Assembly (NCBI GenBank): GCA_964449215.1
Contig: CAYVAH010000001.1
Location: 32,865-96,864 of the forward strand
Reading direction: 5' to 3'
From: Candidatus Undinarchaeota archaeon
GTDB taxonomy: Archaea > SpSt-1190
Length of the DNA: 64,000 nucleotides
The position numbers and the translations under genes are program-made. The notes below the pieces were generated by a model that worked only from the letters and a program-made list of their open reading frames with translations, made no database searches and was not told where the DNA came from. Below, in pieces: positions 28,388-59,020 of the stretch (the stretch's first letter is position 1; the number at the start of each line of letters is the position of its first letter).

Positions 28388-29085
28388 AATGTCTGGTGGC
28401 GATGATGCTCCTGGCCGGAACATTCGCCCTCAGCTTCAGTTATGATGGCGAAGTTTTCGTGACCCCCGGTGAGGAAAGAGTGGTGAAGATATACCTGCAG
28501 AGCGAAAATGAAAGTGGAGTTTACCCTGTCACCTGCTCCTCAAGTATTTCTGTGAAATGTCCGAACTACGTGAGGATAAACCCGGGATCGGAAACCTTCG
28601 TTGCCCTGGAGCTCACAGCGGGAATCGGGCGGCATCTGGTGAATGTCTCGATAGGAGGGAGACCAATACGGTTTGTCGTTGAGTCTTCGAACCACACAGA
28701 TGTGTTTTACAATATGCTCCAGAGATACAACAACAGTTTTTTCAGGCTCGAAGCAAGGTATGGAAAGAGTGAACTCCTTGACCTGGGGAAGCTCCTGGTT
28801 TCGGAGGGGTTCTCCCACTACAAAAAAGGGGAATATCCTGCAGTCAAAGGAATTCTGGAAAATCTCGAGACGCTGCTCGGTGAATATTATGCCTCCATTG
28901 GAACCGTGGAGGAACAGCCAGCCAGACTTGAGCTGTCTTTCATTCCCCTCCTCCTAGTTGGAGGAATGCTCGGGGCTTACACCATTGCAACAAGGAAGCC
29001 GAAGAGAAACTCCGGGGCAGGGGAACTGAGCAAACTTATGGAAAAGGAGTTTGGAGGTGGAGTTGTTGGCAAAAAAGAAGACTAA
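28384..29085 (+). CDS. Small secreted/membrane-anchored protein (N-terminal signal peptide, C-terminal TM anchor), translationally coupled to the giant gene
   Basis: ATGA start/stop overlap with the giant ORF. N-terminus MKCLVAMMLLAGTFALS is signal-peptide-like. C-terminal LSFIPLLLVGGMLGAYTIATRKPKR is a TM plus stop-transfer. No recognisable family. Confidence 0.6.
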   Translation: MKCLVAMMLLAGTFALSFSYDGEVFVTPGEERVVKIYLQSENESGVYPVTCSSSISVKCPNYVRINPGSETFVALELTAGIGRHLVNVSIGGRPIRFVVESSNHTDVFYNMLQRYNNSFFRLEARYGKSELLDLGKLLVSEGFSHYKKGEYPAVKGILENLETLLGEYYASIGTVEEQPARLELSFIPLLLVGGMLGAYTIATRKPKRNSGAGELSKLMEKEFGGGVVGKKED

Positions 29086-30229
29086 GCCGAAGAAAGTCAA
29101 AAAGGAGGAAGAAAAGCCCGCGGAAGAGGCCCCAGAAGAAGAAGGCGGGGAACCGGCAGCAGAGGAAGGAGAAAGAACAATAGGAGATATTGTTGAGGAG
29201 GAGGGGCTTGTTTCCGAACCTGAAAGGGAGTCAATGCTCAAGCAGCAGGGGACACCTGAGCTCTCTGAAGTTCTGATGCGCATTGACAGAATTGACGGGA
29301 AGCTGGAGCTCTTCAAAGGGATGCTCGATTCCTTCAACGAAAGACTCATAGAACTCAATGAACGCCTCGGGGACACCCGCAGGATGGTCTTCGACAGGGA
29401 AAAATGGGCCTCAAAGCTCGAAACGGAGTTCGAGAAAGTGGCAGGCATTGTGAAGGAACTTGACCCGGAGAAAATCGTAATGAGGTTCGAGAAGTTCAAG
29501 ACAAGCATTGAAAAACAGAATGCAACCCTGGAAAAGCTCAACGACCTCCTGAAGAACCTATCGGAGCGGATGAAGATTGCGGAGGGGAAACTCGAGAACG
29601 TTAAGAGCCTCGAAAACGTGATGAAGGCCGGAAAGACCGTTGAGGAGAAATTGAAGAAGATTCAGGAAGCGAAGACATATACGGACAAAATATCCGCGAA
29701 GATAGAGGCGATGTTCCTCGAAACGAATGAAAGGGTCGCCATGATGAAGGAAAACCTTGATAAGATTGAAAAGCATGAGTCGATGCTGGGCGACCTGCTG
29801 AAGGAAATTGAATCACTGAAGTTCAAGATAGATGAAGAGCTCGTGAAAAAGAGGGAGGTTGAGGAACTTATTGAGTCCGCAAAAGACGTAATCATAGAAG
29901 AAATCGTTGGGATAAACCCAGTTGCTTTTGACAACCTTCGAAGGAGGGTCGCGATATTGGAGAACAAGGGAAAAAGCACCAGAGAGCTCGAAGAGGAGCT
30001 GAAGAAATACCAGACACTTATGGATCAGGTTGAAAGGGATTTCCAGATGGGGCGGATAAAGGACGAAGCCAGGAACGAGCTGAAGGCCAGCACGGAGAAA
30101 AAGATAGAAGAAATCCGGCTGGTCCTTGAGAGCAGAAAGGGTCCAAAAAAGGTTGAGGGGAAGAAAGCAAAGGGAAAGGAAACCAAGTTGAAGGAAAAAC
30201 TTCTGAGCATGGGAAAGAAATCTACTTGA
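29051..30229 (+). CDS. K/E-rich cytoplasmic coiled-coil protein (start uncertain: TTG/GTG at 29051-29066; first ATG at 29234)
   Basis: Long ORF with heptad-like K/E/L-rich sequence throughout and no TM. Overlaps the previous gene across an A-run (ggcaaaaaagaag). SD-like GGAGGTGG at 29053-29060. Confidence 0.55.
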   Translation: MEVELLAKKKTKPKKVKKEEEKPAEEAPEEEGGEPAAEEGERTIGDIVEEEGLVSEPERESMLKQQGTPELSEVLMRIDRIDGKLELFKGMLDSFNERLIELNERLGDTRRMVFDREKWASKLETEFEKVAGIVKELDPEKIVMRFEKFKTSIEKQNATLEKLNDLLKNLSERMKIAEGKLENVKSLENVMKAGKTVEEKLKKIQEAKTYTDKISAKIEAMFLETNERVAMMKENLDKIEKHESMLGDLLKEIESLKFKIDEELVKKREVEELIESAKDVIIEEIVGINPVAFDNLRRRVAILENKGKSTRELEEELKKYQTLMDQVERDFQMGRIKDEARNELKASTEKKIEEIRLVLESRKGPKKVEGKKAKGKETKLKEKLLSMGKKST

Positions 30230-33200
30230 AAACCCTCTTCAGTTCCTCGAAGGTCTCGCGGGATATCAGCCCCTCTTCATATTGGCTCTTCAGTGTTTGA
30301 AGAACGTCAGATCCCCCTTCTGCTTCCCTTTTCTTCTTCACTATTTCCTCGAGCTTCTTCATCGCCCTCCTCTGCTCCCTCCCTTTCAGTATCTTGAACT
30401 TGTTTATGGCTATCACAATCAGGAGAATCAGAGCAAATATGGAAACGGCAATCACATACCAGTTCGGTGGAACCTCCGGGAGCGTGACTGTCGGCAGATA
30501 CCTCGGTTTTGAAATCTCCAGCCGGTATTTTATCTCCTCGATGGTGTTCTCCACATCAGATATCGTCTTGATTGCATCAACAGTCTGGTCCTTCTCGAGG
30601 TAGGTTTCAGCCACATCGAGCATTTCCCTGGATTTCCTGAGGAGGGAAAGAATCTTGGTAACATCACCCCCCCTCGCAGCAACCTTACCCGCCTGGTCCT
30701 CCAGATCCATAAGCTCCTCCCGGAGGGAAGCAATCCTCGCCCGGAGAGCCTCCTCCTGTGTCTTAAACACTATAACCTTGTAGAACTCCGAAACCTCCAC
30801 TTCACGGGAAATTATACGCATCTTGGTCACGTAGGTTCGGGCCGTGGCGTCCTCAGGGATCGTGAACTTCACGACAAGGTATCCACTTGACCCGGGAGAG
30901 AGGGATGCCACCTCCCTGACAACCTCGAACCAGTCCTTGTCTATGTCCTCAAAGAAAACTGTTATGTCGGAAAGGCCAACATCCCCTGTGTTCTTCACCT
31001 CGATGGTGAGATAACCCACCGAACCGCGGTTTATTATCATCTCATCCGGGAAGACGTTGGTTATTGTGAGCTCCATCACAGCAGCCTCAACCGGTGTTAT
31101 AATCTCAGGGGGGACCTCCTCCGGCGCAGCAGCTTCCACCACCCTGAAACCCCTCGAAACCTCAAGCGGGGGGTACACTGTCGAGTAGTTCAGAAGGACG
31201 TGGAGCGAGTAGCCCCCCGCTGACTGGTTGGAGTATATGGAAAGATTTGCAGTTAACGTGCGGTTGCCCCTGGCAGGAACGAATGTCGGCCTGTCATGGA
31301 CATAGGCATAAGTTCGATTCTGTGAATCCTCAATCCAGTATGAGAGAAGAACATCCTGGTCAACATCCCCGTAGTTCTCGAGCAGTATGGTGAAATTCAG
31401 GTCCTCACCCTGTGGCACCTCTGGGTCTATGCTGATTATATCAACGTCATAGGGTCCGCCAAAACTGACGCGGAAAGCCTTGAGCTTCCTCACCTGCCTC
31501 CCCCCTTGCTCAACTATAAGCTCCGCCAGATAGTATCCGGTGGTCGTTGGGAGGCTGTGCTTCGTCTGGTAGAGCCTGCTATTGTTCGTGACGTTGAAAA
31601 GCGAAAGCGAGCTGTTCGTGAAATAAAGATTCTCGGCCGAGTCATACACGTTCAGCGTGACTTCGTCCGGTTCCACCATAGGACCATCAGTATAGACGAG
31701 AGCGTAAAAGTGTGCCTGTATCGGCTGGCTTGAGTACCACACATATCCTACATCAAACTCAACATTATATTCCTCCCTGACGGAGAAGGAATACGTGGTG
31801 CTGTGATTAACTGTCTTGTTCGCCACCGGGTCCCGGTGCGAGGCATTCACAGTTATGGTGTAGTTGCCCAAGGGAGCATCATCGGGAATTGAAAATGTTG
31901 GTATCGGCAGCACCGTTCCATCGGACTGGAGCTCGTCGTGATATCGCAGGTATCCGAGCGAGTCGTTGAGCTTTAGAGAAACATTTGCAGGTATGGGAAT
32001 CCCGGACTCATCAGTGGTGTTTATGTATATGGATGCCGTTTCTCCCGTGTAGTATGTCCGGAAACCCGTTCCCACACTCGTGTGGAGTATTGGATAAACA
32101 TACAAGGTCAGGTTCTGACGGGAATAAAGCCCAAGGTTGTCTCTCGTCTCAACCTGCAAGGTGTAGTAACCGAACTCGTTGCTGTTCCCCCAGGTCCCGG
32201 GGTATGTGAGCTCGTAGTAGTAAGTCTCATTTGATTGATTCACGAGGTTCATGTCAGATGCCTGCACCGAGCCCCGGGGAAGAAACACAACGAGTCTGGT
32301 GAAGCTCAACCCCTGCCCGGATTTATCAGTGATATTCGCATAAACCGTTATGTCTTCAAGCTCCTGCGTAATATTCTTTGACAGTGTGGCATTTATCTCG
32401 GCAAGCTCTCTTGGTATCATACTCACGTTCAAATATCTCCAGGAGGGCTGTGCGACGCCAGCACTCACATTGTATGTGGCATTATAATAGTCCCTCGCGA
32501 CTCCGGTGAGATTCCAGAGTATGACAAAGAGGTGCACGCCCTGCGCTGGAACGGTGAAGTTGGTCTCATTGGTGTATGTATAGTTGGCGCTTTCCGGGGA
32601 AACGGTGAAGTTCAGTTCCACGTTACCCGTGTTGTTGACCATAACGTCGCACATCTTCCCCTCATCGAAAGCTACCTCGGTTGTGCAGTTCTCCGGGTGG
32701 AGCTCCCAGGTCCGGGAAACGGGAACTGTAATATTCAGGTACACAAAATCGTAACCATCATCGGAGCTTGTGTAATTGGCAGTTCCGGTATAATTGCCGG
32801 GGGAATAGCCGGGGGAGACATTCACATTCGCAGTCACATCAATCACAGAGCCAACAGGAATGAAGTCTATCTCGGGATAAAACGTTATGTTGAAATCATC
32901 CAGCCCAAGCACCGTTACACTCACCCCATTCACCTGGTCATTACCGGTGTTCCTGACGGTGAAGCCACCGATATCCGTGCTCTGACCGTGTGGCGCCGAA
33001 CCGGCCACATACGCTTCGTCTATCTGAAACTCCTTGTTCGAAAGAACTTCCACAGTGATGTTCGTGGTGTTGTATGTCACCCCTATTCCGGGATTCGCCC
33101 AAGAAACATTGACAACAACAGTGTAGTTCCCGGGCGTGCTCCGCTTCACAGCAAGCTCAAATGTCCTGAAACAGAACCCACCCACCGGCACGTCACCGCA

Positions 33201-35903
33201 GTTATACCTGTTGCCAGAAACGTTCGTGAGCCAGTAGGCCTCCGGGAGCTCCAGGGTGATGTTTGTGTCGAGGGCCGGAGAAGACCCTATATTCGTCGTG
33301 TTCACAGAAACCGTGAAATTCTGAAATTTATACCACCTCATCCTGTCAGAGGTGAGGGCGGAGGGCGTGGCGTTCACGCTCATAAAAGTCTCTATTATGC
33401 TAACCTGGACAGGTATGGAATCCCAGACGCCATTCTCCGAGGACGCATTTAGAGTACCATCAAAGGTACCACGCTCATGGTCACTTGGCATATACACCCA
33501 GACCTCCACAGAAGCATTTTCACCCTGGAAAATCAAGGAAACATTTGAAGGGGTGAAATTGAAAGTCATGGTGGGTATTCCTGTGACGTTGAACGTCACA
33601 TTCTGCAACTCGAAGTTTCCTTCGGATAAGACGGTTATATTCCCCATATAGTTCCACTCGCCTGGAGCGGCAGTTATGGAAATGTTCTCCTCGGCAATCC
33701 TGAGTGAGGGATTCGGGTCCACGGAAATGTTGAACGTGGTGTTGTAGCTGTCGGTGGTGTTGTCGGAGTTCAACCAGTCCACTGTGGCATTCACAAGATA
33801 AAACCCTGGAGTTTCATTTTCGGGGACCCACACATCAAAAAACCTGATGGAAGATTGAAAGAGGTCTATCGTACCAAGCTGTTCGAAGCTCGTGTTCACC
33901 CACCAATTCCCGGGGAGATTCAGGGTAATGTTGGTCGCGTAGGCGGTGCCGTTCCCGAGGTTGGTCACATTCGCCACCATCGTGAAGTTCTGTCCTTCAG
34001 AAAGGGTCACGTTATCTATGGACTCCCTGCCGCCTGTGAAATTCAGACCGACAGTCACATCCGTCACATACGTCACTGAGGTAAAGGTGTCCTGCGCCGT
34101 CCCTGTGTTGCCAAGTCTCGTAGCATTACAGACAAGTGTGAACACACCATAGTATGAGGGGGACACGAATTCTATCAGGTATGTGCCGTTCCCATAGTCA
34201 GTTACATTTGGGTTCGCATCTGTGGAGTCATACACACAGCTTATATTCGCCCCGGGGATGTATGTGTCATTACGGTAGTTGGTAACCTCCATGGTCGCAT
34301 TTATGGTGCGATTAACGAACCCGTAGTCATTTGAAATATTGAGTGACGCAGTGTAGGTATCAAACACAAAAAAGCTGGCGGTGGTCGTGTTCAGGAGCAC
34401 GTTCTTCTGGTCCCAGGCATAAGCCGTGATATTCCACTGACCTGTCGAGTTCGACTCGTTCAGGATGAAATAATTTGTGTAGAGGTCGTCCCCTGCCTGC
34501 GAATCCCCATGACTCCCGTCGTCATAAAGGGTCAGCGACAGGTCGCCCCCCTCAGACACAATGGTCGCATTCACGAGGGTTATCAGCCCGGAATCCACGG
34601 TGGCATTAACAAAAACTGTTACATTCTCCCCGCGGTTATAGCTTGAGTGTTCCGTTGAAGCGTTCAGGAACACCTCCCATTTTTCCGAAAGAGTCTTTGA
34701 CGTTTCCTCCCTGAAAAGCAACCTGTTCCTGAGGTTCCTGACTTGGGCGTCAGTCGGAGATCCCTTGATCGCGGAAGGGCTGTTGAAATGAAGTGCTGTC
34801 ACCTCATATAGGGTCTCATCTGGCTGAACCGTCACATTGGAAAGTTCAATACCCCCCCTCCCCCAGCTGTTGTTCCTGTTGACGGAAGCATAGGGACCCG
34901 AATCCTCAACATTTATGATACCAACGTGGAAGTTCGCGAACTCCGCGGCAAACCAGAACCACGAGGCAGGCTCGGAGGCATTCCCGATTATTATGCTGTT
35001 CGTCCCTGCCCTTTTAACATCAAAGAGCAAAGCACCAGCAGGAGTGGAATTGCGGGTTATGTTATAGTCCGCCGTGTTCTTGTAAATTTGCTCCACCTTT
35101 ATCCACTGGCTCTGATTGTAGAATATGTAACGCTTCACAATTTCACCTTCTGTCTGGTTTGTGGAGTTCCATACAACTTCCTTCCCTCTTTGCTCCACCA
35201 CGAGCCTTGCAGGACCCTGATAGAGAACTGTCATGTTGTTGCGAAGGTCGAACGTAAAGTTGTGTGTGTCATTGGAATACTGCATATACTCAATGGGGTT
35301 CTCCCCCTCAGACGGAGGAGACCAGAACTCATTCTCAGCATAGTCCTTTATTCTATAGATGCCTGAAACGTTGGCGCCCCGGGAGGTGTCTATCCAGTAT
35401 TCAAGACCTTTTGTGGTTCCGGAATCCTCAATGGTCACGTTGACCTGCAGCTCCTCGCCATCCCAGCTGTACGGGATGACAGTGTAGTTGATGGCGGGCT
35501 TGCTGTCGGTGTCATAGTAGAGACAAAAGACCCTCAGCTCGTTGGCCGCGAGGGTACCGTTCATTATGAACGCCAGCGTTCCGTGAAAATTCATCGAGGC
35601 GTTGAACCCCTGACCCTCATCGAACTGGCTCGGCAGCTCGAACATGGCACTCCCGCTGGAGGGATCCTGCTCTATGAGGCGGAGTGAAGTGGCGTTGATA
35701 GTCCCGCTTCCCCCAGAAGCATTCAGCTCAGCAGTAAGGTTCAGCGGGAACTCTATTGGCCAGTCTTCGCGGGAATACTTGGAAGCATTTACTTCGATAC
35801 ACACACGGTAATCCCAGCTGGAATCCCACCACTCCAGCTTCGCAAAAGCCGGGAGAACCAAAAGAAGCAGCAGCAGGGCTACCCGAAACCTCACGGAATT
35901 CAA
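30222..35903 (-). CDS. Large surface (S-layer-like) glycoprotein, 1,893 aa, with N-terminal signal peptide, C-terminal coiled-coil stalk, TM anchor and short cytoplasmic tail (start codon TTG at 35903 or GTG at 35894)
   Basis: N-terminus (M)NSVRFRVALLLLLLVLPAFA is signal-peptide-like. Very high NxS/T density. Coiled-coil segment at aa ~1720-1810. TM is WYVIAVSIFALILLIVIAINKF. TATA-like GGCTTAAATTAAAAGCC at 35909-35925. Convergent with the giant-gene operon, with 3' ends overlapping by 8 nt. Confidence 0.75.
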   Translation of the reverse strand: MNSVRFRVALLLLLLVLPAFAKLEWWDSSWDYRVCIEVNASKYSREDWPIEFPLNLTAELNASGGSGTINATSLRLIEQDPSSGSAMFELPSQFDEGQGFNASMNFHGTLAFIMNGTLAANELRVFCLYYDTDSKPAINYTVIPYSWDGEELQVNVTIEDSGTTKGLEYWIDTSRGANVSGIYRIKDYAENEFWSPPSEGENPIEYMQYSNDTHNFTFDLRNNMTVLYQGPARLVVEQRGKEVVWNSTNQTEGEIVKRYIFYNQSQWIKVEQIYKNTADYNITRNSTPAGALLFDVKRAGTNSIIIGNASEPASWFWFAAEFANFHVGIINVEDSGPYASVNRNNSWGRGGIELSNVTVQPDETLYEVTALHFNSPSAIKGSPTDAQVRNLRNRLLFREETSKTLSEKWEVFLNASTEHSSYNRGENVTVFVNATVDSGLITLVNATIVSEGGDLSLTLYDDGSHGDSQAGDDLYTNYFILNESNSTGQWNITAYAWDQKNVLLNTTTASFFVFDTYTASLNISNDYGFVNRTINATMEVTNYRNDTYIPGANISCVYDSTDANPNVTDYGNGTYLIEFVSPSYYGVFTLVCNATRLGNTGTAQDTFTSVTYVTDVTVGLNFTGGRESIDNVTLSEGQNFTMVANVTNLGNGTAYATNITLNLPGNWWVNTSFEQLGTIDLFQSSIRFFDVWVPENETPGFYLVNATVDWLNSDNTTDSYNTTFNISVDPNPSLRIAEENISITAAPGEWNYMGNITVLSEGNFELQNVTFNVTGIPTMTFNFTPSNVSLIFQGENASVEVWVYMPSDHERGTFDGTLNASSENGVWDSIPVQVSIIETFMSVNATPSALTSDRMRWYKFQNFTVSVNTTNIGSSPALDTNITLELPEAYWLTNVSGNRYNCGDVPVGGFCFRTFELAVKRSTPGNYTVVVNVSWANPGIGVTYNTTNITVEVLSNKEFQIDEAYVAGSAPHGQSTDIGGFTVRNTGNDQVNGVSVTVLGLDDFNITFYPEIDFIPVGSVIDVTANVNVSPGYSPGNYTGTANYTSSDDGYDFVYLNITVPVSRTWELHPENCTTEVAFDEGKMCDVMVNNTGNVELNFTVSPESANYTYTNETNFTVPAQGVHLFVILWNLTGVARDYYNATYNVSAGVAQPSWRYLNVSMIPRELAEINATLSKNITQELEDITVYANITDKSGQGLSFTRLVVFLPRGSVQASDMNLVNQSNETYYYELTYPGTWGNSNEFGYYTLQVETRDNLGLYSRQNLTLYVYPILHTSVGTGFRTYYTGETASIYINTTDESGIPIPANVSLKLNDSLGYLRYHDELQSDGTVLPIPTFSIPDDAPLGNYTITVNASHRDPVANKTVNHSTTYSFSVREEYNVEFDVGYVWYSSQPIQAHFYALVYTDGPMVEPDEVTLNVYDSAENLYFTNSSLSLFNVTNNSRLYQTKHSLPTTTGYYLAELIVEQGGRQVRKLKAFRVSFGGPYDVDIISIDPEVPQGEDLNFTILLENYGDVDQDVLLSYWIEDSQNRTYAYVHDRPTFVPARGNRTLTANLSIYSNQSAGGYSLHVLLNYSTVYPPLEVSRGFRVVEAAAPEEVPPEIITPVEAAVMELTITNVFPDEMIINRGSVGYLTIEVKNTGDVGLSDITVFFEDIDKDWFEVVREVASLSPGSSGYLVVKFTIPEDATARTYVTKMRIISREVEVSEFYKVIVFKTQEEALRARIASLREELMDLEDQAGKVAARGGDVTKILSLLRKSREMLDVAETYLEKDQTVDAIKTISDVENTIEEIKYRLEISKPRYLPTVTLPEVPPNWYVIAVSIFALILLIVIAINKFKILKGREQRRAMKKLEEIVKKKREAEGGSDVLQTLKSQYEEGLISRETFEELKRVFK

Positions 35904-37229: not shown

Positions 37230-37331
37230 GCCCCGGTAGCTTAGCGGCAGAGCGCCTGGCTGTTACCCCGTTTCGGGTCACGGAGCGGGACAGAAACCAG
37301 GCGGTCGCAGGTTCGAATCCTGCCCGGGGCG
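37230..37331 (+). tRNA. tRNA-Asn (anticodon GTT) with a 30-nt intron at the canonical 37/38 position (37266-37295)
   Basis: Hand-folded. Acceptor GCCCCGG/CCGGGGC, D-stem GCTT/GAGC, anticodon stem CCTGG/CCAGG, loop CU-GTT-A, intron ccccgtttcgggtcacggagcgggacagaa, T-arm GCAGG-TTCGAAT-CCTGC, discriminator G, no encoded CCA. Confidence 0.75.
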
Positions 37332-42947: not shown

Positions 42948-43427
42948 ATGAAAAGTCTGGCTGAAAAAAGGTACCTGAAATTGGGGGACTTTGGAGTAAA
43001 AAACCCAGAAAAAGACGCGAGGCAAATAATAGCCGAATGCCAAAAAGCGGGTATCAAACCCGGAAGGATCTTGAAAGACGCCGCAAAGTATTGCAAGAAC
43101 CTGTCAAAATATGCACTCAATGGAAATGAACTCGCCAACTGGTTTTCCAGATATGCGGGGGATATCGTTGGAAGTTTGAAGAATGAAAAAACAATCAGAG
43201 AGTTCTTCAAGGAATTGTATGAACAAACAGAGGCTCTATCATACAAATCAAGGGGTATGGCACTAAATCAAATTCTGTATGCACCATTAGTAATAAGGAT
43301 GTATGCAGAGAAAGGAAAGAACCCACTGCAGGAATTCAATGAAAGGCACCGGAAATTGTGGGAGACCACAAATCATAAACCTGTGTTGCATGGATATTCG
43401 TGGGGGCCCGCCGGGATGAGAGGATGA
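42948..43427 (+). CDS. Hypothetical lysine-rich protein (159 aa), visibly lower GC than neighbours, immediately downstream of tRNA-Pro
   Basis: Clean ORF with ATG start and no TM. AT-rich codon usage differs from flanking genes by eye. Confidence 0.45.
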   Translation: MKSLAEKRYLKLGDFGVKNPEKDARQIIAECQKAGIKPGRILKDAAKYCKNLSKYALNGNELANWFSRYAGDIVGSLKNEKTIREFFKELYEQTEALSYKSRGMALNQILYAPLVIRMYAEKGKNPLQEFNERHRKLWETTNHKPVLHGYSWGPAGMRG

Positions 43428-43482: not shown

Positions 43483-44001
43483 CTATACGGGAACACATTG
43501 AGTTTCCTGGCAGGTGTTAACCAGGTGGTCAACGGAGTGCTCGTTTCCCAGGAAGAACCCGCTGGGTAGCTTGCAGAACAAATAGCTTCCATCAACCAAA
43601 TAAGGGGTTCCTCCCCTGGACTGACAGAGCTGTTGCTCGAACTCCCTACCCATAAAATAACCATCAACATCCTGCGACTCAGTCGGGAATCCCTCCAGCC
43701 CGATAAAATTCCCGCCGGCTATGGCAAACATCATGGGGACCCCGAAGTCCCACTTAACCCCGTACCGGTCCAGCACCTCTTTGAACGCAGCACCATTGGT
43801 CGTCTTTACCAGCTTTACTCCTTCATGCCGGGACTCAAGGTAGTTCATCAGGGTGTGACAGTGGGGACATGCCTCAGAATAAATGAGGTATATCACACTA
43901 TCATTTCCAGTCACGTTAAATGACTGCCCCATGGATTTCCTGCTGAAAGACAGGGCTCCCAGCACGAGAAATATCAGCAGGGCAAGCTTCCATTTCTCCA
44001 T
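43483..44001 (-). CDS. Secreted thioredoxin-fold thiol-disulfide oxidoreductase with DsbA-type CPHC active site
   Basis: N-terminal signal peptide MEKWKLALLIFLVLGALSF. CxxC motif is EACPHCHTL. Cys-rich C-terminal extension. Confidence 0.6.
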   Translation of the reverse strand: MEKWKLALLIFLVLGALSFSRKSMGQSFNVTGNDSVIYLIYSEACPHCHTLMNYLESRHEGVKLVKTTNGAAFKEVLDRYGVKWDFGVPMMFAIAGGNFIGLEGFPTESQDVDGYFMGREFEQQLCQSRGGTPYLVDGSYLFCKLPSGFFLGNEHSVDHLVNTCQETQCVPV

Positions 44002-45266: not shown

Positions 45267-46346
45267 TTATAAAGCTTGAAGTATCAGCAGGAACCACGTA
45301 ACTGAAGTAAATGTTATCATGGCGTGGGGGAGATAACCAAGTTTTCTCGCCCTGAGTGCGGCGAGCGAAACTATGAAGGCAAATACAGTAACTCCAAACC
45401 CGGCAGAGGCAACAACAAGATGAAATGGGGCATTTATGAAGAATGCTATGAAGTAAAGAAAGAAAACACCCAAGAGAGTGGCAGTAACTCCCCTCTTCCT
45501 GTCAGCAAATTTGCCAACCAGATGGAGCCCAATCAGGATAAATGACGTGTAGAAGATTACCACGGAGAAAAGGTCTATTATGGAAGAAAGCGGTTCTGAA
45601 AAGACCCCGGCAAGGTAACGGGTGGCGAGGCCGTCCACACCAGTCCCAGAAACTGCAACCGCGAACGGAAGATAGAGCAGAAGGATTATAGACATTGTCA
45701 TATAAAACGCCTTTTTCGTTGACTCCTTGCTGCGAAGAATGTTCCTGACCCTTGGAATCATATTGTGACCGAAAAACGCCAGGGCGGACACGAGGAACAG
45801 GGGAACCATCGAGTCAAAACCGACTAGGGGGGAGGAAACCGTGGAAGCGGGAGGGGTGGTTGCAGTCGTCCTCAAAAATATCTGCACAGGCAACTCCATT
45901 CTCGGGATGGTTATGAGAGTCAGGAGGGAAACAAAGAAAAGCGTGAAAAACGAAAGGAAGCTTGTGAACTCGGCGGGGAAATGAAGGTCCATCACCAGAG
46001 GAACCAGAAGTATTGACATCACAAGAAGGTGGGAAACACCAAGGTGAATCTTCAGTCCAAGGGCGTATGACACAAGGGCCAGAAACACCACTGTCAGCTC
46101 TGACACCACTAGAGCTTTCTTGGCATGGGGGCCAAGATAAGTCTCAACTTCCTCCTCAACAGTCCCGGGGGTCATATCAATTATCAGATAGCCCAGACCA
46201 AGCATATACACGAACCCTGCAAATATCACGAAAACTGAAAGCAGACCGACCTCCTTGGCCAGCACTGGAAGAGCAAAGACCCCTGCCCCAACAATAGCCG
46301 AAATTAAAAGGGATACCGAGGTATCAAATCTATCCACGTAACCCAT
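45267..46346 (-). CDS. Amino-acid permease (APC/Trp-Tyr permease-like), ~11 TM segments
   Basis: N-terminal SAIVGAGVFALP motif typical of APC transporters. Highly hydrophobic throughout. Confidence 0.55.
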   Translation of the reverse strand: MGYVDRFDTSVSLLISAIVGAGVFALPVLAKEVGLLSVFVIFAGFVYMLGLGYLIIDMTPGTVEEEVETYLGPHAKKALVVSELTVVFLALVSYALGLKIHLGVSHLLVMSILLVPLVMDLHFPAEFTSFLSFFTLFFVSLLTLITIPRMELPVQIFLRTTATTPPASTVSSPLVGFDSMVPLFLVSALAFFGHNMIPRVRNILRSKESTKKAFYMTMSIILLLYLPFAVAVSGTGVDGLATRYLAGVFSEPLSSIIDLFSVVIFYTSFILIGLHLVGKFADRKRGVTATLLGVFFLYFIAFFINAPFHLVVASAGFGVTVFAFIVSLAALRARKLGYLPHAMITFTSVTWFLLILQAL

Positions 46347-52648: not shown

Positions 52649-55615
52649 CTAAATCAGCTCTTCTTCCTTGTCCCTGCTCGAGTAAATTCCATACGCAAGA
52701 ACAGCAAGGGCGAGTATCACACGGAAGTCCAGATTCAGCTTGACCGTGGACTTCAACAAAGCATACCGGGAATAATACATGGAGGTTATGTAGTCTCCGT
52801 GCTCATATGCATCCCTGGCTTTCTCTATATAGCCCGAAGCAAGCCTTGAACTGAGCGGGTTCAGGCTCTCAACCTGCGCAAGGAGCTCCTTGGCCTGCCC
52901 CCTGTGCTTCAATGAACGCGAGAGAAAGCTCTCAAGCCCTGCGCTCCTCACCAGGCTCATATACTTTTTCACTGCAGTCTCATCATCACCCAAGTCATGC
53001 AGTCTCTTGACCTCCTCGAGCTCTGGCAAGCGAATGCACTTTAATGGTGGAAGCCTGAAATTCTCCAGCACCTCAGAAACAACATTCGCTTCGACACACC
53101 CATATGTTGTGTAGTCAATTTTATCAGACAGGTGCTCATAGGCTTCTCCGTAGCTGGAGTACCCAAAAAGGAGGGAAGAATTCAGGGAACCATTCTGGAG
53201 TCTGAGTGGTTCACCCGGGGGTTCCAACTCGAAGTTTGATCTGAGTGCCACCCGCTTCTCCTCAAGCGGGTCAAGGGCAACCCCCACCATAGCAGGCATA
53301 TCACCGGAAACATACCTGGCAGGAATCTCAAACGACAGCTCCGCAGTTGAGTTTATAAGATTCTTCACAGTCAGTTCATCCCCGGAAGACAGGACCTCAA
53401 CAGATGGACCGAAGAAACTCACATTATGCTCGCCACAAGGAACCTCCACAAGCACTTCGGAACCGTCATAGAAGAAGGGCGCTGTTGAATTCATCCTCCT
53501 GCCACTGAATGGGTGTTCTATTGGGACAAGAACAGTCTCAAACTCACAGCCCGAAATGAAAACACACCTGGCCTCAGCTTCAAGACCATCAACAGAGTAG
53601 CTACAGTGGTGGTATGCCGGGTCCAGCAAGGACTCGTAACTTACATTGAAAATCACAATGGGCCCAACGTCCTTCAAGTTCAACCGGACAGTGTCACCGG
53701 AAAAACTCACAGAGGACAGGTAGGAGGTATCACCAACAAAGTTCTGGGAGTCTATATGCCTTGGGGGGAAGGGAAGATCCAGCACCGAGCTCGCCGAATC
53801 AAGCTGAACCCCCCAGCTGTTGTTCACGAGAACCGCGCAGTGCACATCAAAGGGCCTGCCAAGGACCGGTTTTTCAGGGTAGCACAAAACCCTGGAAGGA
53901 AGGTTTGAACTGAAGTCTTTCAGCAATTCGTCATACTTTTCCCTCATTTCCTCAAGGTATGGCTCTCTGGAAAGGTAATAGATAATGCTGTCAACATAAC
54001 CGGAAAATGCTGAAATCTTTCTGTCCTCAACCTTCACATCAACCCCCCTGTCCCTAAGAAATTGGGATAGACTCAGCAGCTCCGCCTTAATCTTCATGGC
54101 GCGATCCCTGTATTTCTCAAAAAACCTTTCCTCCACGTGATCCTTGAATGCCCTGACACCCGCAAGAACCTCGCTGGCACCTTCCCCACCGAGATTCCCA
54201 GAAAGACCGACCTTCCGCTGAAGAACCCGCAACTCATCTTTGAACTCCATAAGTTCAGAAACATCAAGATAAGGTTCAATCCTTTCCAGGAGTTCCAAGG
54301 TGAAGTTCAACTCGGATTCCGCCAGCTCCAGACTGAGCCTGTCGGCCTCATCTTGAAGCTGGTTTTCCTCAAGATATTCAATTCTCGCATCCAGGAATGC
54401 CTGGGATGTTAGGAGAAGCCTCTGTGGCAGTTCCCCGTCATACTCGCACGGCCGCCCGTATGACCTGCAAAGGGCTTCCATTGTCTCAACCTGCCCGGTG
54501 AGGTATGACCAGGCAGATGCCACCAGTCCATCCATGTAGGATCCCTCAACCAGCACCCTTTCGTACCCCAGAAACTTCTCGCCTGAACTTTTCGAAACCC
54601 GAGCGGCCTCCATCGCCCTGAAGAGCTTTTCATACGCCTCCTTCACTCCTGAAAGTGTCGGCACATCCCAGCTCGACGCCACCAACTCACCGGATCCCTG
54701 AAGCAAGGAGAGTGCCAGCCTGACTGATGAGTTTGAAAGGATTGAGTTAAGGGCCTCCGCCTGCGAAACAACCAGCGACTCCTGATCCAATTTTTTCACA
54801 GCTTCCCTTTCCCTGGAACCGAGAAACTCTGATACAGCAAGCAAGTAATCTTTCAAGTCCCGGACCCATAAAAGTCTTCTGCGGAACTCAGACATATCAG
54901 GTCTCAACAGTGCATCTTCCAGCTGACCTCTTGTGTAAAAACCCTCAGGTGTGCAGGGGGAAGTCACACCAGGAAAGTAAACAGCCAGGAGGTATCTGGG
55001 AATCGAAACGGTACCATTAGAAGTTTCTATTGAGCATGAAGGCTCAAGAGGCCTGGGAAGAATTGTCGGGGAAGACTCCAAGGGGTCCATGCCTTCCACC
55101 CTCATACGCAGATCCATGTAGGTGACCCCATTTGGGAGGGCTACCCTCCCCGAAAACTCCGAAAGATCCTCTTCTTCATCCAGCAGCTCCATAAGGAGTT
55201 CGAGGTCATTTTGCATGAACTTCCCCTGAGCTGTGTCCAGCTTATAGGCAGTTCCAACAAGACGCTCTATGCCGGACCTGAGACCCCTGCCGAAGAAACT
55301 GAGGACCATGTTTTTTATGAAGGGAACCTTCTTCTTCATAGAAAGGGAGTCCTCCTGAACCTCCCTGGCAAGCACAACTGCCTCACTCCGGAGTTTGCGG
55401 AGCTCGGCGACATCCTGCTGGAGCGAATCATAGTAAAACGCCGCCCTCCCATCAATTCCAAGTTCCCCGGCACTTGGGAGGTACGGGACCTCGGGAAGGG
55501 AAGCGAACTGTGAAGCATACTCATATGCCATGTCGCTGTCCCAGAAAAGTTGGTCCACGAGCGTTCCAGTGTAGGCAAATACAGCCAGGAACAGGAAAAT
55601 GCTAACCTTTTTCAC
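52649..55615 (-). CDS. Large extracellular protein (988 aa) with N-terminal signal peptide and C-terminal TM anchor
   Basis: N-terminus MKKVSIFLFLAVFAYTGTL. C-terminal hydrophobic ILALAVLAYGIYS followed by charged tail. Several sequons. No family recognised. Confidence 0.6.
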   Translation of the reverse strand: MKKVSIFLFLAVFAYTGTLVDQLFWDSDMAYEYASQFASLPEVPYLPSAGELGIDGRAAFYYDSLQQDVAELRKLRSEAVVLAREVQEDSLSMKKKVPFIKNMVLSFFGRGLRSGIERLVGTAYKLDTAQGKFMQNDLELLMELLDEEEDLSEFSGRVALPNGVTYMDLRMRVEGMDPLESSPTILPRPLEPSCSIETSNGTVSIPRYLLAVYFPGVTSPCTPEGFYTRGQLEDALLRPDMSEFRRRLLWVRDLKDYLLAVSEFLGSREREAVKKLDQESLVVSQAEALNSILSNSSVRLALSLLQGSGELVASSWDVPTLSGVKEAYEKLFRAMEAARVSKSSGEKFLGYERVLVEGSYMDGLVASAWSYLTGQVETMEALCRSYGRPCEYDGELPQRLLLTSQAFLDARIEYLEENQLQDEADRLSLELAESELNFTLELLERIEPYLDVSELMEFKDELRVLQRKVGLSGNLGGEGASEVLAGVRAFKDHVEERFFEKYRDRAMKIKAELLSLSQFLRDRGVDVKVEDRKISAFSGYVDSIIYYLSREPYLEEMREKYDELLKDFSSNLPSRVLCYPEKPVLGRPFDVHCAVLVNNSWGVQLDSASSVLDLPFPPRHIDSQNFVGDTSYLSSVSFSGDTVRLNLKDVGPIVIFNVSYESLLDPAYHHCSYSVDGLEAEARCVFISGCEFETVLVPIEHPFSGRRMNSTAPFFYDGSEVLVEVPCGEHNVSFFGPSVEVLSSGDELTVKNLINSTAELSFEIPARYVSGDMPAMVGVALDPLEEKRVALRSNFELEPPGEPLRLQNGSLNSSLLFGYSSYGEAYEHLSDKIDYTTYGCVEANVVSEVLENFRLPPLKCIRLPELEEVKRLHDLGDDETAVKKYMSLVRSAGLESFLSRSLKHRGQAKELLAQVESLNPLSSRLASGYIEKARDAYEHGDYITSMYYSRYALLKSTVKLNLDFRVILALAVLAYGIYSSRDKEEELI

Positions 55616-56684
55616 GCTCCCACCCCCTGCGACCCCACCAGATAAGAAGCACTGCCAGAGGTAACAACATGAGATAATTTACACCAAGCTCTCTCCTTAC
55701 AGGAGTCTTTTCCACCCAAAAATTTTCCCCCTTCAAAGGAAGGGGCCTGGAGTGAAAGCTTATATTGAGTTCCGGAAGCTTTTCAACAACCCTGGGGTGT
55801 CCATCCCCAGAAACCAGAAGAAGCGGCAATTTTTCCTCTCCTTTGGAAAATATGAGGGTTTCTTCATCTATGCTATCCAAGACATAGCCGGAAAAGCTGA
55901 GGGGGCAGTCCCTCTCAAATTCGAGAAGAGCATCATAAAGTGCAAAGAACTGGGGATCCTCAACGGAAGCCATTCTCATCAGCTCGTCCCTGTAGTCCAG
56001 AACAACTTCGTGACAAAGCGGGTATCCCTCAAGCTTCCCGGCCAGAAGCTCAAGAGCCTTCCTGCCACTTATCTTCCCTTTCATGAGAGCCTCCCCAATG
56101 GAACTGTCCCGCTCATAGACTCTGGAAGGGAAGTCCGGCACCGACCAGCTGGAAACCGCCACAAGCGACTGTGGGCGGGATTTCTCCAGGAGACCCAACA
56201 AGGTCCGCAGCGAGTTTTTACCATCACAGACATCCACCAGATAATCGTCCCAGCCATACTCATAGTATATCCTCGCCGCGGATTCAATGGAATCACAGGA
56301 ATAATTCGATGAAATTGCCGTCCCAATTGCGGCTTCCATCGCTCTCTTCGTTTCCTCATACCCGAGAGCCTCGGGAGAAAGCGAGTCAGAAACCATTCTG
56401 GACAGGAACTCCGAGCTGACCGCCCCACCGCTGTTCTTGAAAAACAGGGAATTAATGAAAAATTCTGTGGCTTTCTCAAGGGAGCGAAGGGGTTTTCCAG
56501 GGCATACTGACTTGAAAAGACCATAACTCAACCGGTCATACAAATCCGGATATGTCAACGCCGCAACCCTTGGGTCGCCGGGGGGGTATGCCCTGTGCTC
56601 CTCCTGAAAAATCACAGCATAGGGCGAGTCGCAGGCAAGAACAGAAGTTAGCACAAGAACAAAGGCGATGAACGGTTTATGCAT
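55602..56684 (-). CDS. Extracellular protein (360 aa) with signal peptide and C-terminal TM anchor
   Basis: N-terminus MHKPFIAFVLVLTSVLAC. C-terminal LMLLPLAVLLIWWGRRGWEREKG. Overlaps the downstream gene by 14 nt (operon). Confidence 0.55.
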   Translation of the reverse strand: MHKPFIAFVLVLTSVLACDSPYAVIFQEEHRAYPPGDPRVAALTYPDLYDRLSYGLFKSVCPGKPLRSLEKATEFFINSLFFKNSGGAVSSEFLSRMVSDSLSPEALGYEETKRAMEAAIGTAISSNYSCDSIESAARIYYEYGWDDYLVDVCDGKNSLRTLLGLLEKSRPQSLVAVSSWSVPDFPSRVYERDSSIGEALMKGKISGRKALELLAGKLEGYPLCHEVVLDYRDELMRMASVEDPQFFALYDALLEFERDCPLSFSGYVLDSIDEETLIFSKGEEKLPLLLVSGDGHPRVVEKLPELNISFHSRPLPLKGENFWVEKTPVRRELGVNYLMLLPLAVLLIWWGRRGWEREKG

Positions 56685-57094
56685 ACCGTAGATACTACTA
56701 CGCCGTAGGTTTTAAAATATTGATGTCGGACCTCTGCGGCCAAGCAGGACCTCCCTGTCATGAGTGGGGAAAAGATGAGAGTATTTCCCCTCTGCAGAAT
56801 GGTCATATTCAGGAACTCATCAAGGCTCACATTCACCTGAACACATCTACCGTCCTGCCAGTTACCATATGTGAAATTCCATCTCTCTTTGAAGTTCTCC
56901 ACCTCCCCATCCACAACCGCCCTCCTGAAGTCATACTCAAAGTTTCTCGCCATGTAGAAAGCCTCATCCGCATCCATCAGCACCCCTTGATTTTTCAGCT
57001 CAGATGAAACAAGCGTGCCATAGATAGCATATAGATTCACGAGAGTGGATGCGAGAAGGAAGAACCATGTTATGGCAAACACTCCGCGACGCAT
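56648..57094 (-). CDS. Putative type IV pilin-like protein (class III signal peptide-like N-terminus MRRG/VFAITWFFLLASTLV)
   Basis: Short charged leader ending in Gly, followed by a ~22-aa hydrophobic segment. Paralogous N-terminus to the upstream 97-aa ORF. Overlaps neighbours in the operon. Confidence 0.4.
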   Translation of the reverse strand: MRRGVFAITWFFLLASTLVNLYAIYGTLVSSELKNQGVLMDADEAFYMARNFEYDFRRAVVDGEVENFKERWNFTYGNWQDGRCVQVNVSLDEFLNMTILQRGNTLIFSPLMTGRSCLAAEVRHQYFKTYGVVVSTVCINRSSPLFLC

Positions 57095-57363
57095 ATTCTG
57101 TGCTCACCTCCACCAAAAACTCTGTTGGTGCAGTAACGGAACCTGTAAGGGCATTTGTGGAACTCCTCCCCGTCCACCCAGATAGCAAAACTTCCCGCAG
57201 GGAGTTCCTGAGGTGAATGCCCGTACATAAGCATCTGGGCGACGTCCTGTGCATATACCTCTGTCTCCCTGAGAACCGGAACAGGCTCTGATTCCATAAC
57301 ATAGAACAGGTAAGGTAGGAGAAATATCACCAGCAGAATCTCTATTGAAAAGAAACCCCTCAC
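57070..57363 (-). CDS. Putative type IV pilin-like protein (MRG/FFSIEILLVIFLLPYLF)
   Basis: Leader MRG, then F+1 and E+4 followed by a hydrophobic stretch, reminiscent of prepilin/archaellin N-termini. First gene of the minus-strand operon. Confidence 0.4.
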   Translation of the reverse strand: MRGFFSIEILLVIFLLPYLFYVMESEPVPVLRETEVYAQDVAQMLMYGHSPQELPAGSFAIWVDGEEFHKCPYRFRYCTNRVFGGGEHRICVAECLP

Positions 57364-57382
57364 ACAAAGAACTGCAAATAAG

Positions 57383-57418
57383 CCTTAAATACCTAATGAA
57401 CCTCCAAATGCTTAAATT
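57383..57418. promoter_or_regulatory. Divergent promoter region with two TATA-like boxes (CCTTAAATA at 57383-57391; GCTTAAATT at 57410-57418)
   Basis: Each box is ~22-30 nt from the adjacent start codon (57363 minus, 57440 plus). The same GCTTAAAT motif precedes the 1,893-aa gene at 35909-35925. Confidence 0.45.
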
Positions 57419-57439
57419 CTCCCCCGGACAGATAATTCC

Positions 57440-59020
57440 GTGGCAGACTGGGTCGATGAAGTCAGACAGGGCAGGGAAGAACTCTCAATAGGTTATCTGA
57501 TAAAAGCGAAGGGAAAGCGGGGCAATGTCGTCAAGAGCTACAAGAAGAACCTGGAAGCCCATATGGTGAATATGAAGGTCGATAAAGGAATCAACACGGG
57601 ACTCGTCCCACCGATGCAACCGATGATGGTCCTGCTCGAAGGGGACAACCTTGACTTTGAATCCTTCTCAAGGGACTGGATACTGAAGTTCTCCGGGACA
57701 GGTGGGTTCAGACTAAAGGCTGTGCAACTCTTCGAGAAATTTTACTACAGTGAAGCCTCACAGGTCCACGGAACGATGCTTCAAAAAATAACATACCAGA
57801 GAAACCAGGCCAAGGAGTTCCTCGCCTCCATCCAGAACCTCAAAACCGCCATAATAAACATAGAAAGCGACCTAGAAAAGCTCAACGAGCAGTTGAAGGC
57901 CTTCCAGGACGGGGACTGGGAACAGATAAAGGGGCTGTTCATAGACAACTATGGTGGACCGCAGAGGAGCTGGACCGCCATCGCAAGGAATGTCCCCCTC
58001 GTGAGAATGGCCATGACCTGGTTCCTCCGTCTGAAGGTGAAGAAATCCAGTGAGGAAGACATGCCCATAAAGGAATTTTCCAGGCTGAAGATAAACGAAA
58101 AAACCAGCCCGGATGACCTCAAGAAAATTTCCAGGAGGATAGATGAGTGCAAGAAAAGACTCGAAAAGGGTGCGAAGGAAAACAAGAAACTCATGCTCGA
58201 GGAGATTGACAAACTCGTGAAGGACGAACAGATGAACCCGGCGATAGCAAATTATCTGAAGAGAAAGATTGAGGAATTCTGGAACTGGGTGGTTGACTAT
58301 GTGAGCTGGCTTTCGCGGACCCGAAACAACATAATGAACAATCTCATCCAGCAGAAAGCCAACCTGAAGCTCTACATGAAATGGGCAGCGGACCACATAA
58401 TACAGGCCAAGAGGATGGAAATGAAACCGGAGGATGTCGTGGGGGATTTCCCGGAATTCAGTTTCAAGGGAGCACCAAAGGAAGTGCTGGCATCAGACTA
58501 TGTATTTTATGCTGATGAGGAACATAGACCGGACATATACGAGCTGTGCAGACCCTGGACACCTGTAATAATGACCTCCATTGTTATGGCAACGACCATC
58601 GAGCTTCAGAAAAAATTCATGGAAATGGGATTCATAACCTTTCATGGGTATATGCACCACCATGATGCTGAGATGCTTCCGGAACTGGCAAAGAGTGGAG
58701 GAAAGAGCCTGCTGGATGTGATGCGTGACTCCGGGGCGATAACCGATGATGAGCTGCCAAAAATATTTACACCGGAGGAAATAGAGGAGATGAAGTGGAA
58801 GGAGAAAAAAGGGAAAGAAACTTTCAAGGATAAACTCTGGTGGCTCGGGAGCGAACTGTGGGACAACTTCCAGGGTGTGCTAAGCATCTTCGGGATGGAA
58901 CTTCCGAAGCAGAGCCTTCCCTGGACCAGGGAGCGCAGGGCGGCCTCCATGGCAGCTGATCTCGCACTGAAGGGCGTAAGAGACTTCAAAAAGAGTAAAG
59001 GAATGCTGGTGGTTGAGTAA
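57440..59020 (+). CDS. Hypothetical cytoplasmic protein (526 aa) with central coiled-coil region
   Basis: Clean ATG ORF with no TM and no recognisable catalytic motifs. Confidence 0.55.
   Translation: MADWVDEVRQGREELSIGYLIKAKGKRGNVVKSYKKNLEAHMVNMKVDKGINTGLVPPMQPMMVLLEGDNLDFESFSRDWILKFSGTGGFRLKAVQLFEKFYYSEASQVHGTMLQKITYQRNQAKEFLASIQNLKTAIINIESDLEKLNEQLKAFQDGDWEQIKGLFIDNYGGPQRSWTAIARNVPLVRMAMTWFLRLKVKKSSEEDMPIKEFSRLKINEKTSPDDLKKISRRIDECKKRLEKGAKENKKLMLEEIDKLVKDEQMNPAIANYLKRKIEEFWNWVVDYVSWLSRTRNNIMNNLIQQKANLKLYMKWAADHIIQAKRMEMKPEDVVGDFPEFSFKGAPKEVLASDYVFYADEEHRPDIYELCRPWTPVIMTSIVMATTIELQKKFMEMGFITFHGYMHHHDAEMLPELAKSGGKSLLDVMRDSGAITDDELPKIFTPEEIEEMKWKEKKGKETFKDKLWWLGSELWDNFQGVLSIFGMELPKQSLPWTRERRAASMAADLALKGVRDFKKSKGMLVVE

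Follow-up and report, generated by a model that had tools for sequence, protein, structure and literature searches.

Minor pilins acting together with a large non-pilin protein are known from FimU-PilVWXE and PilY1 in Pseudomonas and from PilC1/2 in Neisseria, where such complexes have been proposed to prime assembly and to occupy the filament tip. Bacterial type IV pilins and the pseudopilins of the type II secretion system (T2SS) share a prepilin-type motif, G/FxxxE (the slash marks the cleavage site; PMC3244431). In archaea, the substrates of PibD/FlaK peptidases and the EppA-dependent Epd pilins of Methanococcus maripaludis are charged at -2 and have Gly or Ala at -1 (PMC4371748, PMC3875500), the charged -2 residue being needed for class III processing (PMC4371748), and the pilin genes of M. 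maripaludis and H. volcanii are clustered apart from those for the ATPase and the platform protein (PMC4371748, PMC3875500). Archaeal pilin loci with neither an ATPase nor a TadC gene are documented (PMC4858521, PMC4371748); those described by Makarova et al. in 2016, from Thermoproteales and other lineages, combine predicted pilins with membrane or cytoplasmic proteins, and their ATPase was inferred to lie elsewhere in the genome (PMC4858521). Here, we analyze a four-gene operon, g1-g4, found in a stretch of archaeal DNA of 64,000 nucleotides (nt) (contig CAYVAH010000001.1, positions 32,865 to 96,864; the whole stretch is hereafter the window), which encodes two small pilin-like proteins (g1 and g2) followed by two larger exported ones (g3 and g4). 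The reading we favor, with a probability of roughly one half, is that g1-g4 form an Altiarchaeota-specific, translationally coupled envelope module, in which g1 and g2 are minor or initiator pilins of a type IV filament and g3 and g4 are their membrane-anchored partners.

All four genes lie on the minus strand. G1 (57070-57363) begins with a GTG codon and encodes a type IV pilin-like protein of 97 amino acids (aa), delineated by the open reading frame (ORF) call, the alignment of its orthologs and codon-position bias. It is followed by g2 (56648-57094; 148 aa, pilin-like), g3 (55602-56684; 360 aa, exported) and g4 (52649-55615; 988 aa, exported). The ORF list gives overlaps of 25 nt between g1 and g2, 37 nt between g2 and g3, and 14 nt between g3 and g4, exactly the values on which an initial annotation of this DNA had based its four-gene operon. 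The 25-nt overlap (57070-57094, minus strand) is dual-coding, specifying both the C-terminus of g1 (I-C-x-A-x-C-...) and the start of g2 (M-x-R-G-V). G1-g4 are genuine coding genes, because identical ORFs are annotated as genes in several public assemblies, a 113-kb NCBI contig among them, and because substitutions relative to L012, a relative of 82-90% identity, are in excess at third codon positions: differences at positions 1/2/3 number 5/5/20 in g1, 16/11/40 in g2 and 35/36/124 in g3. As short ORFs that overlap others in alternative frames, g1 and g2 might be suspected of being chance ORFs upstream of g3, and the initial annotation had itself named a non-coding status of the small proteins among the outcomes that would undo its proposal. 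This highly improbable reading is ruled out by the third-position bias in both genes and by orthologs that keep invariant Cys residues at 22-28% identity.

The first 24 residues of g1 (57292-57363, minus strand) make up a class III signal, consisting of a leader, a cleavage motif and a hydrophobic helix. The leader is M-R-G, and the predicted mature protein begins FFSIE..., with Glu at +5 and 15 uncharged residues thereafter. Hydropathy analysis (our own implementation of the Kyte-Doolittle method) identifies a single N-terminal hydrophobic segment in g1 and likewise in g2. Beyond the helix, g1 has a small Cys4 domain (C71, C78, C91 and C95); the Glu (E8) and all four Cys are invariant in an alignment of 11 sequences. 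The protein has every element of the PilFind rule, namely [GAS]-x4-[DE] plus 14 uncharged residues, one transmembrane (TM) segment no more than 50 aa from the N-terminus and a length below 350 aa (PMC3244431), which we applied as a regular expression of our own in place of the original PilFind and FlaFind programs, and it carries the charged -2 residue as well. In its strict form the motif occurs in 2/300 window ORFs, g1 being one of the two.

Orthologs vary the leader around a constant core. The g1 N-terminus reads MRG/FFSIE in the window and MKG/FFSIE in the other close relatives; more distant versions are MKG/FWTLE (L023), MTARRG/LFTLE (L021), MLMRA/QVMLE (L017) and MKA/QIIIE (L026). Ten of the 11 orthologs, L026 included, have [KR][GA] within residues 2-6, then xxxxE and at least 14 uncharged residues, and the acidic residue at +5, nearly universal among bacterial pilins and found in a subset of archaeal ones, is present in all 11 g1 proteins and absent from g2. 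EppA-dependent pilins combine Gln at +1 with Glu at +5, a pattern found only in the L017 and L026 orthologs; the window g1 has Phe at +1. G1 shares its motif with the bacterial prepilins and differs from them in a leader of only 2-5 residues, a head unrelated in sequence (as is that of g2) and an archaeal host. The N-termini described initially, MRG-FFSIEILLVIFLL for g1 and MRRG-VFAITWFFLLASTL for g2, are present in the ORF translations. The description of them as archaeal prepilin- or archaellin-like signals stands as regards the class III-type motif, but the label 'archaeal' is too narrow, because the g1 motif, with Glu at +5, is of the bacterial or EppA type.

G2 combines a leader M-R-R-G with 27 uncharged residues, four invariant Cys (C84, C117, C138 and C148) and four N-x-S/T sequons; it has no Glu at +5. 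By regular expression, Arg-Gly followed by 15-27 uncharged residues is present in 8/9 g2 orthologs, the L017 protein failing solely through a Glu at +6. The L026 protein reads MCRG, and R-G occupies residues 2-4 in all ten g2 orthologs. The position of this dipeptide is informative, as the first eight g2 codons fall within the 25-nt overlap with g1. Across loci, the g2 Arg is encoded by CGC, AGG or CGG and the Gly by GGA, GGC or GGG; in the other frame, these bases specify g1 residues that vary (E/A/P and A/G). Because Arg and Gly are kept through synonymous codons as the g1 residues change, selection acts on the g2 residues themselves, Arg(-2) and Gly(-1). The Cys patterns of g1 and g2 orthologs are invariant down to 22-28% identity. 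An AlphaFold model of g2 (mean predicted local distance difference test score, pLDDT, 77.7) shows a helix at residues 4-62 followed by a multi-stranded sheet, a predicted architecture that resembles the pilin 'lollipop', in which an N-terminal helix of about 50 residues packs on an antiparallel beta-sheet, with the qualification that the alignment behind it contains seven sequences only.

G3 and g4 have a different topology. Hydropathy finds a Sec-type signal-like segment at the N-terminus of g3 and a TM helix at its C-terminus (aa 333-351); g4 has an N-terminal Sec-type signal peptide and a C-terminal TM helix (aa 966-980). This confirms the signal peptides and C-terminal anchors assigned to both proteins at the outset, and among g3 and g4 orthologs the signal peptides, the C-terminal TM helices and the short basic tails are conserved. 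G4 has 12 Cys and ten N-x-S/T sequons; the sequons and even Cys counts of g3 and g4 would fit exported proteins. The Cys at the end of the g3 signal peptide is invariant. A lipoprotein assignment for g3 was considered and is not supported, the strict lipobox [LVI][ASTVI][GAS]C being present in 1/9 orthologs only (L010, VSAC). At the extreme C-terminus of g4 (52652-52675, minus strand) a basic stretch is followed by EE[EP]L[IL], read as SSRDKEEELI in the window. This ending is found in 8/8 g4 orthologs, despite an ectodomain identity of just 19-43%, and has the appearance of a short linear motif that a partner in the cytoplasm would recognize. Profile-profile comparison with hhalign indicates no paralogy between g3 and g4.

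The arrangement invites comparison with FimU-PilVWXE/PilY1, in that several small pilin-like proteins would be expressed alongside a protein of about 1000 aa that is exported by Sec. Similarity in sequence or domains is absent. G3 and g4 have C-terminal membrane anchors and cytoplasmic tails, which are absent from PilY1 and PilC, and a search for PilY1/PilC-type adhesin features in g4 gave no Neisseria_PilC, beta-propeller or vWA match in Pfam and NCBIfam and no PDB sequence match. Two large, C-terminally anchored operon partners are likewise not among the described Epd, Aap, Ups and PilA loci, and the g1-g4 families, in contrast to the loci of Makarova et al., have no match among the tested arCOG, Pfam and NCBIfam families. 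More broadly, searches of Pfam, NCBIfam, PHROG and PADLOC returned nothing meaningful for g1-g4 or for the 526-aa protein encoded next to them, and profiles of the same five proteins gave only chance-level matches to PDB sequences.

Within the same phylum, a described surface appendage is the hamus of Ca. Altiarchaeum hamiconexum. The hamus protein is described as soluble and beta-rich (~56 strands), with 9.7% Gly, 9.5% Thr and an S-layer-like N-terminus; its authors speculated about a pilin-like assembly route, for which anchoring and assembly factors were not known (PMC4460559). Comparison with other genomes found no full-length homologs, and no homolog with an S_layer_N domain occurred in any Alti-2 genome from the White Oak River (PMC4975002). 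Since g4, at ~110 kDa, is near the apparent size of the hamus protein (PMC4460559), it might be proposed as a hamus subunit. The hamus subunit is not similar to g1-g4, and we rejected this barely credible assignment: g4 is a membrane-anchored protein rich in Leu and Glu (Leu 13.8%, Glu 9.9%, Gly 6.1%, Thr 2.7%) that matches neither S_layer_N nor NosD nor FKBP_C, g3 being likewise without a Pfam match.

The operon is conserved as a block. The order 526-aa gene (divergently transcribed), g1, g2, g3, g4 is repeated in L007, L010, L017, L019, L021, L023 and L026, and the four-gene order is found at no fewer than eight divergent Altiarchaeota loci, down to ~20-25% identity. Across the seven loci, protein identity to the window is 22-70% for g1-g3 and 19-43% for g4, with minima of 22% (g1), 27% (g2), 22% (g3) and 19% (g4). 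The lengths of g1/g2/g3/g4 are 104/158/502/1131 aa in L017, 94/157/373/803 aa in L019, 110/159/348/1035 aa in L021, 99/153/347/1013 aa in L023 and 107/156/439/1101 aa in L026. The 25-nt g1/g2 overlap is retained in eight of ten loci, and the complete 25/37/14 pattern in the window, L010 and L021. Downstream of g4 lie UbiA and thermosome genes in the window, L007, L010, L021, L023 and L026, with an LPG_synthase_TM gene between the two in L021, L023 and L026; in L017 the position is taken by an Asn-synthase-like gene and TFIIB. As the downstream genes vary among loci, g1-g4 travel as a unit.

An exhaustive phmmer search of 1.84 billion representative proteins recovered 15 relatives of g4, consistent with orthologs or fragments, some of which were compared with the loci; a word-indexed search recovered seven relatives of g2, and pattern scans yielded one GTDB species genome and six JGI contigs with relatives. 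The nearest genome record is labelled Candidatus Altiarchaeota archaeon, as are several of the homologs that have names, and the gene content of the window is archaeal (thermosome, histone, PheRS of archaeal type, DUF373). Within the reach of these sequence searches, the operon is restricted to Altiarchaeota. A literature search combining Altiarchaeota with pilin found nothing relevant, and in the main text of Makarova et al. the string 'Altiarchae' occurs in the reference list only (PMC4858521). The initial annotation had recognized the operon and overlooked its Altiarchaeota lineage, the conserved 526-aa neighbor and the conserved cytoplasmic tail of g4.

These features can be arranged into a tentative mechanism for a pilin-based module. 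Sec would insert g1 and g2 into the membrane, and a FlaK/PibD/EppA-type class III signal peptidase, the product of an unlinked gene, would trim their leaders of 2-5 residues after Gly or Ala, exposing the hydrophobic N-terminal helices. Mature g1 would retain the Glu at +5, the residue through which a type IV filament subunit pairs with its neighbor's N-terminus; g2, lacking it, would resemble the tip-located GspK. This combination makes low-abundance minor or initiator pilins more likely than a bulk fiber subunit. G3 and g4 would be exported by Sec and kept in the cytoplasmic membrane by their C-terminal helices; produced at a constant ratio to the pilins through translational coupling, they might dock on them and serve as a complex for priming or at the base, or else as cargo displayed on the surface. 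Outside the locus would lie the peptidase and, unlinked as is common for archaeal pilins (PMC4371748, PMC4858521), the motor ATPase, the platform protein and any major pilin. Alti-2 core genomes are reported to hold 'flagellar proteins' (PMC4975002), so a class III peptidase is plausible in this lineage. The processing motifs and the g2 model lend partial support to the earlier description of g1 and g2 as pilin-like proteins; the minor pilus with dedicated accessory proteins that accompanied that description is something we infer.

Several observations weigh against this reading. Neither g1 nor g2 matches PF07963 (N_methyl), TIGR02532, PF04021 (Class_IIIsignal), PF07790 (Pilin_N) or PF01917 at E-values up to 1, which sets them apart from bacterial pilins (N_methyl, TIGR02532) and from archaeal class III proteins (DUF361, Class_IIIsignal, Pilin_N), and for the 11 g1 orthologs no curated pilin or archaellin profile came up at E-values as high as 10. 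The motif alone is not rare, its loose PilFind core occurring in 11/300 window ORFs. Among the four proteins, structure prediction covers g2, whose model draws on a seven-sequence alignment, and Foldseek found no match for this model in the PDB. By hhalign, the likeness of g1 to g2 is confined to a six-residue site (RGFFSI/RGVFAI), with no paralogy beyond it. The g1 ortholog of L019 (9502-9786, minus strand) starts MEILDL, without a [KR][GA] leader and with no in-frame start upstream; Glu and Cys residues are nonetheless retained in their usual pattern. This ortholog is either a leaderless variant needing no peptidase, an ORF that begins at a non-canonical codon, or a copy in decay. The physical link of the pilins to g3 and g4 rests on operon structure. 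Finally, the expected machinery was not found: Pfam scans of most window ORFs of at least 150 aa gave no T2SSE, T2SSF or Peptidase_A24 domain, and the gene calls in as much as 10 kb of flanking DNA at the related loci include neither PilB nor PilC nor a peptidase.

Part of this evidence would also suit another, rather doubtful explanation, that g1 and g2 are uncleaved N-terminal signal-anchor (type II) proteins which form, with g3 and g4, a membrane or envelope complex that has nothing to do with type IV filaments and that might, for instance, have a structural or tethering role in the unusual double-membrane Altiarchaeota envelope. The missing profile matches, the empty Foldseek result for g2, the assembly genes not found nearby and the conserved though leaderless g1 of L019 all fit such anchors, basic residues ahead of a hydrophobic helix are expected under the positive-inside rule, and a single membrane helix in each of g1-g4 is compatible with a four-helix membrane complex. 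What an uncleaved anchor leaves unexplained is the invariant Glu five residues into the g1 helix, as a conserved acidic residue within a membrane helix is hard to account for in a plain anchor, together with the Gly or Ala placed right before the helix and the Arg-Gly of g2 that is under selection within a dual-coding stretch.

The conclusion that the window has no assembly ATPase or PilC gene holds as far as the scan extends, that is, for T2SSE and T2SSF. Besides g1-g4, six ORFs of at least 150 aa have no Pfam match and may, as far as families go, still belong to these groups: 28384-29085, 29051-30229, 42948-43427, 43483-44001, 45267-46346 and 57440-59020, and a partial ORF of ~631 aa at the 3' end of the window lay outside the Pfam scan. 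In the wider comparison with bacterial systems, PilB, PilC, PilD and secretin genes are not nearby. Among the scanned ORFs, a secretion-type P-loop domain occurs only in one of 9446 aa, which has a C-terminal HerA/DUF87 domain. The ORF at 45267-46346 (minus strand) encodes 359 aa with ~10 predicted TM segments, has no Pfam match at E 1e-3 and is at first look neither PilC- nor peptidase-like; on visual inspection, the N-terminal sequence (..GAGVFALP..) is reminiscent of amino-acid permeases.

The 526-aa protein (57440-59020, plus strand) is probably cytoplasmic, having no TM segment and no sequons. Its gene adjoins g1 in every examined Altiarchaeota locus whose contig extends far enough, at a spacing of 36 bp in L023, 50 bp in L021, 76 bp in the window and ~180-215 bp in L007, L010, L017 and L019. 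The predicted structure (pLDDT 80.4) comprises an alpha/beta head with long helical hairpins, and comparison of the model gave no known fold match and no informative structural neighbor. These properties raise a further reading, which partly overlaps the one we favor and which we consider unlikely: a five-gene unit, in which the 526-aa coiled-coil protein would bind the acidic tail of g4, perhaps along with that of g3, coupling a cytoplasmic scaffold to the extracellular pilin-like assembly in an Altiarchaeota-specific trans-envelope apparatus. The constant divergent position of the gene, with short spacers at some loci, speaks for it, as do the tail motif of g4, conserved in its eight orthologs, and the 526-aa protein itself, with its helical hairpins and its lack of TM segments and sequons. 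Yet the histone and DUF373 genes beyond the 526-aa gene are equally syntenic, so that adjacency may be plain inherited order, and 526-aa homologs of 28-37% identity in other archaea (L018, L022, L024 and L027) have no g1-g4 nearby. Because of the equally syntenic flanking genes and the distant homologs without g1-g4, we rank the 526-aa protein as a possible partner only.

A more elaborate version, less probable again, would join all five genes into a previously undescribed trans-envelope apparatus of the double-membraned Altiarchaeota, with g1 and g2 building a short pseudopilus-like stalk held by g3 and g4 and tied through the g4 tail to a cytoplasmic scaffold. Its function would be to anchor or build surface appendages or to tether the outer membrane, with no dedicated PilB/PilC pair next to it.

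The intergenic region between g1 and the 526-aa gene (57364-57439; 76 bp), as read from the sequence, contains TATA-like A/T-rich boxes, TATTTAAG and GCTTAAAT, ~20-30 nt upstream of either start codon. Judged by general archaeal promoter architecture, this suggests two back-to-back promoters producing leaderless or short-leader mRNAs. A scan for sigma-70 promoters and intrinsic terminators gave background counts, these models being uninformative for an archaeon.

Elsewhere in the window, other large and apparently surface-type proteins are encoded. A single ORF of 9446 aa (47-28387, plus strand) has no Pfam match in its first 4718 aa; its second half contains Ig-like and macroglobulin-type domains (Big_7, NPCBM_assoc and MG2), and near its C-terminus a HerA/DUF87-type P-loop ATPase (E 1.6e-9) is accompanied by weak ResIII and T4SS-DNA_transf matches. 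The sequence would represent an unusual fusion of a giant, apparently surface-type protein to a HerA/FtsK-like ATPase. Overlapping its end is a 233-aa ORF (28384-29085, plus strand) with hydrophobic segments at both termini, itself overlapped by a 392-aa ORF with a highly charged N-terminus (29051-30229, plus strand); neither has a Pfam match. A convergent 1893-aa ORF (30222-35903, minus strand) contains NPCBM_assoc and MG2. The 9446-aa gene, the ORFs at 28384-30229 and the 1893-aa ORF may constitute a second large surface-protein cluster. One of four tRNA matches (37230-37331, plus strand) spans 102 nt against a model of 71 positions, which suggests an intron-containing archaeal tRNA.

Pilin-like proteins and pilin-only loci were already known. 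What is new here are two pilin-like and two partner families without family assignment, held in a fixed overlapping operon and restricted to Altiarchaeota. These organisms are abundant subsurface carbon fixers and belong to the small number of double-membraned archaea; according to reviews, their outer-membrane and appendage-anchoring components are not known (PMC4500143, PMC4460559). If g1-g4 prove to be merely anchored membrane proteins, they would amount to an ordinary lineage-specific operon. If the pilin-based complex is real, g1-g4 would be candidates for building or anchoring surface structures in Altiarchaeota, and the type IV filament superfamily would gain two pilin and two partner families that are new to it.

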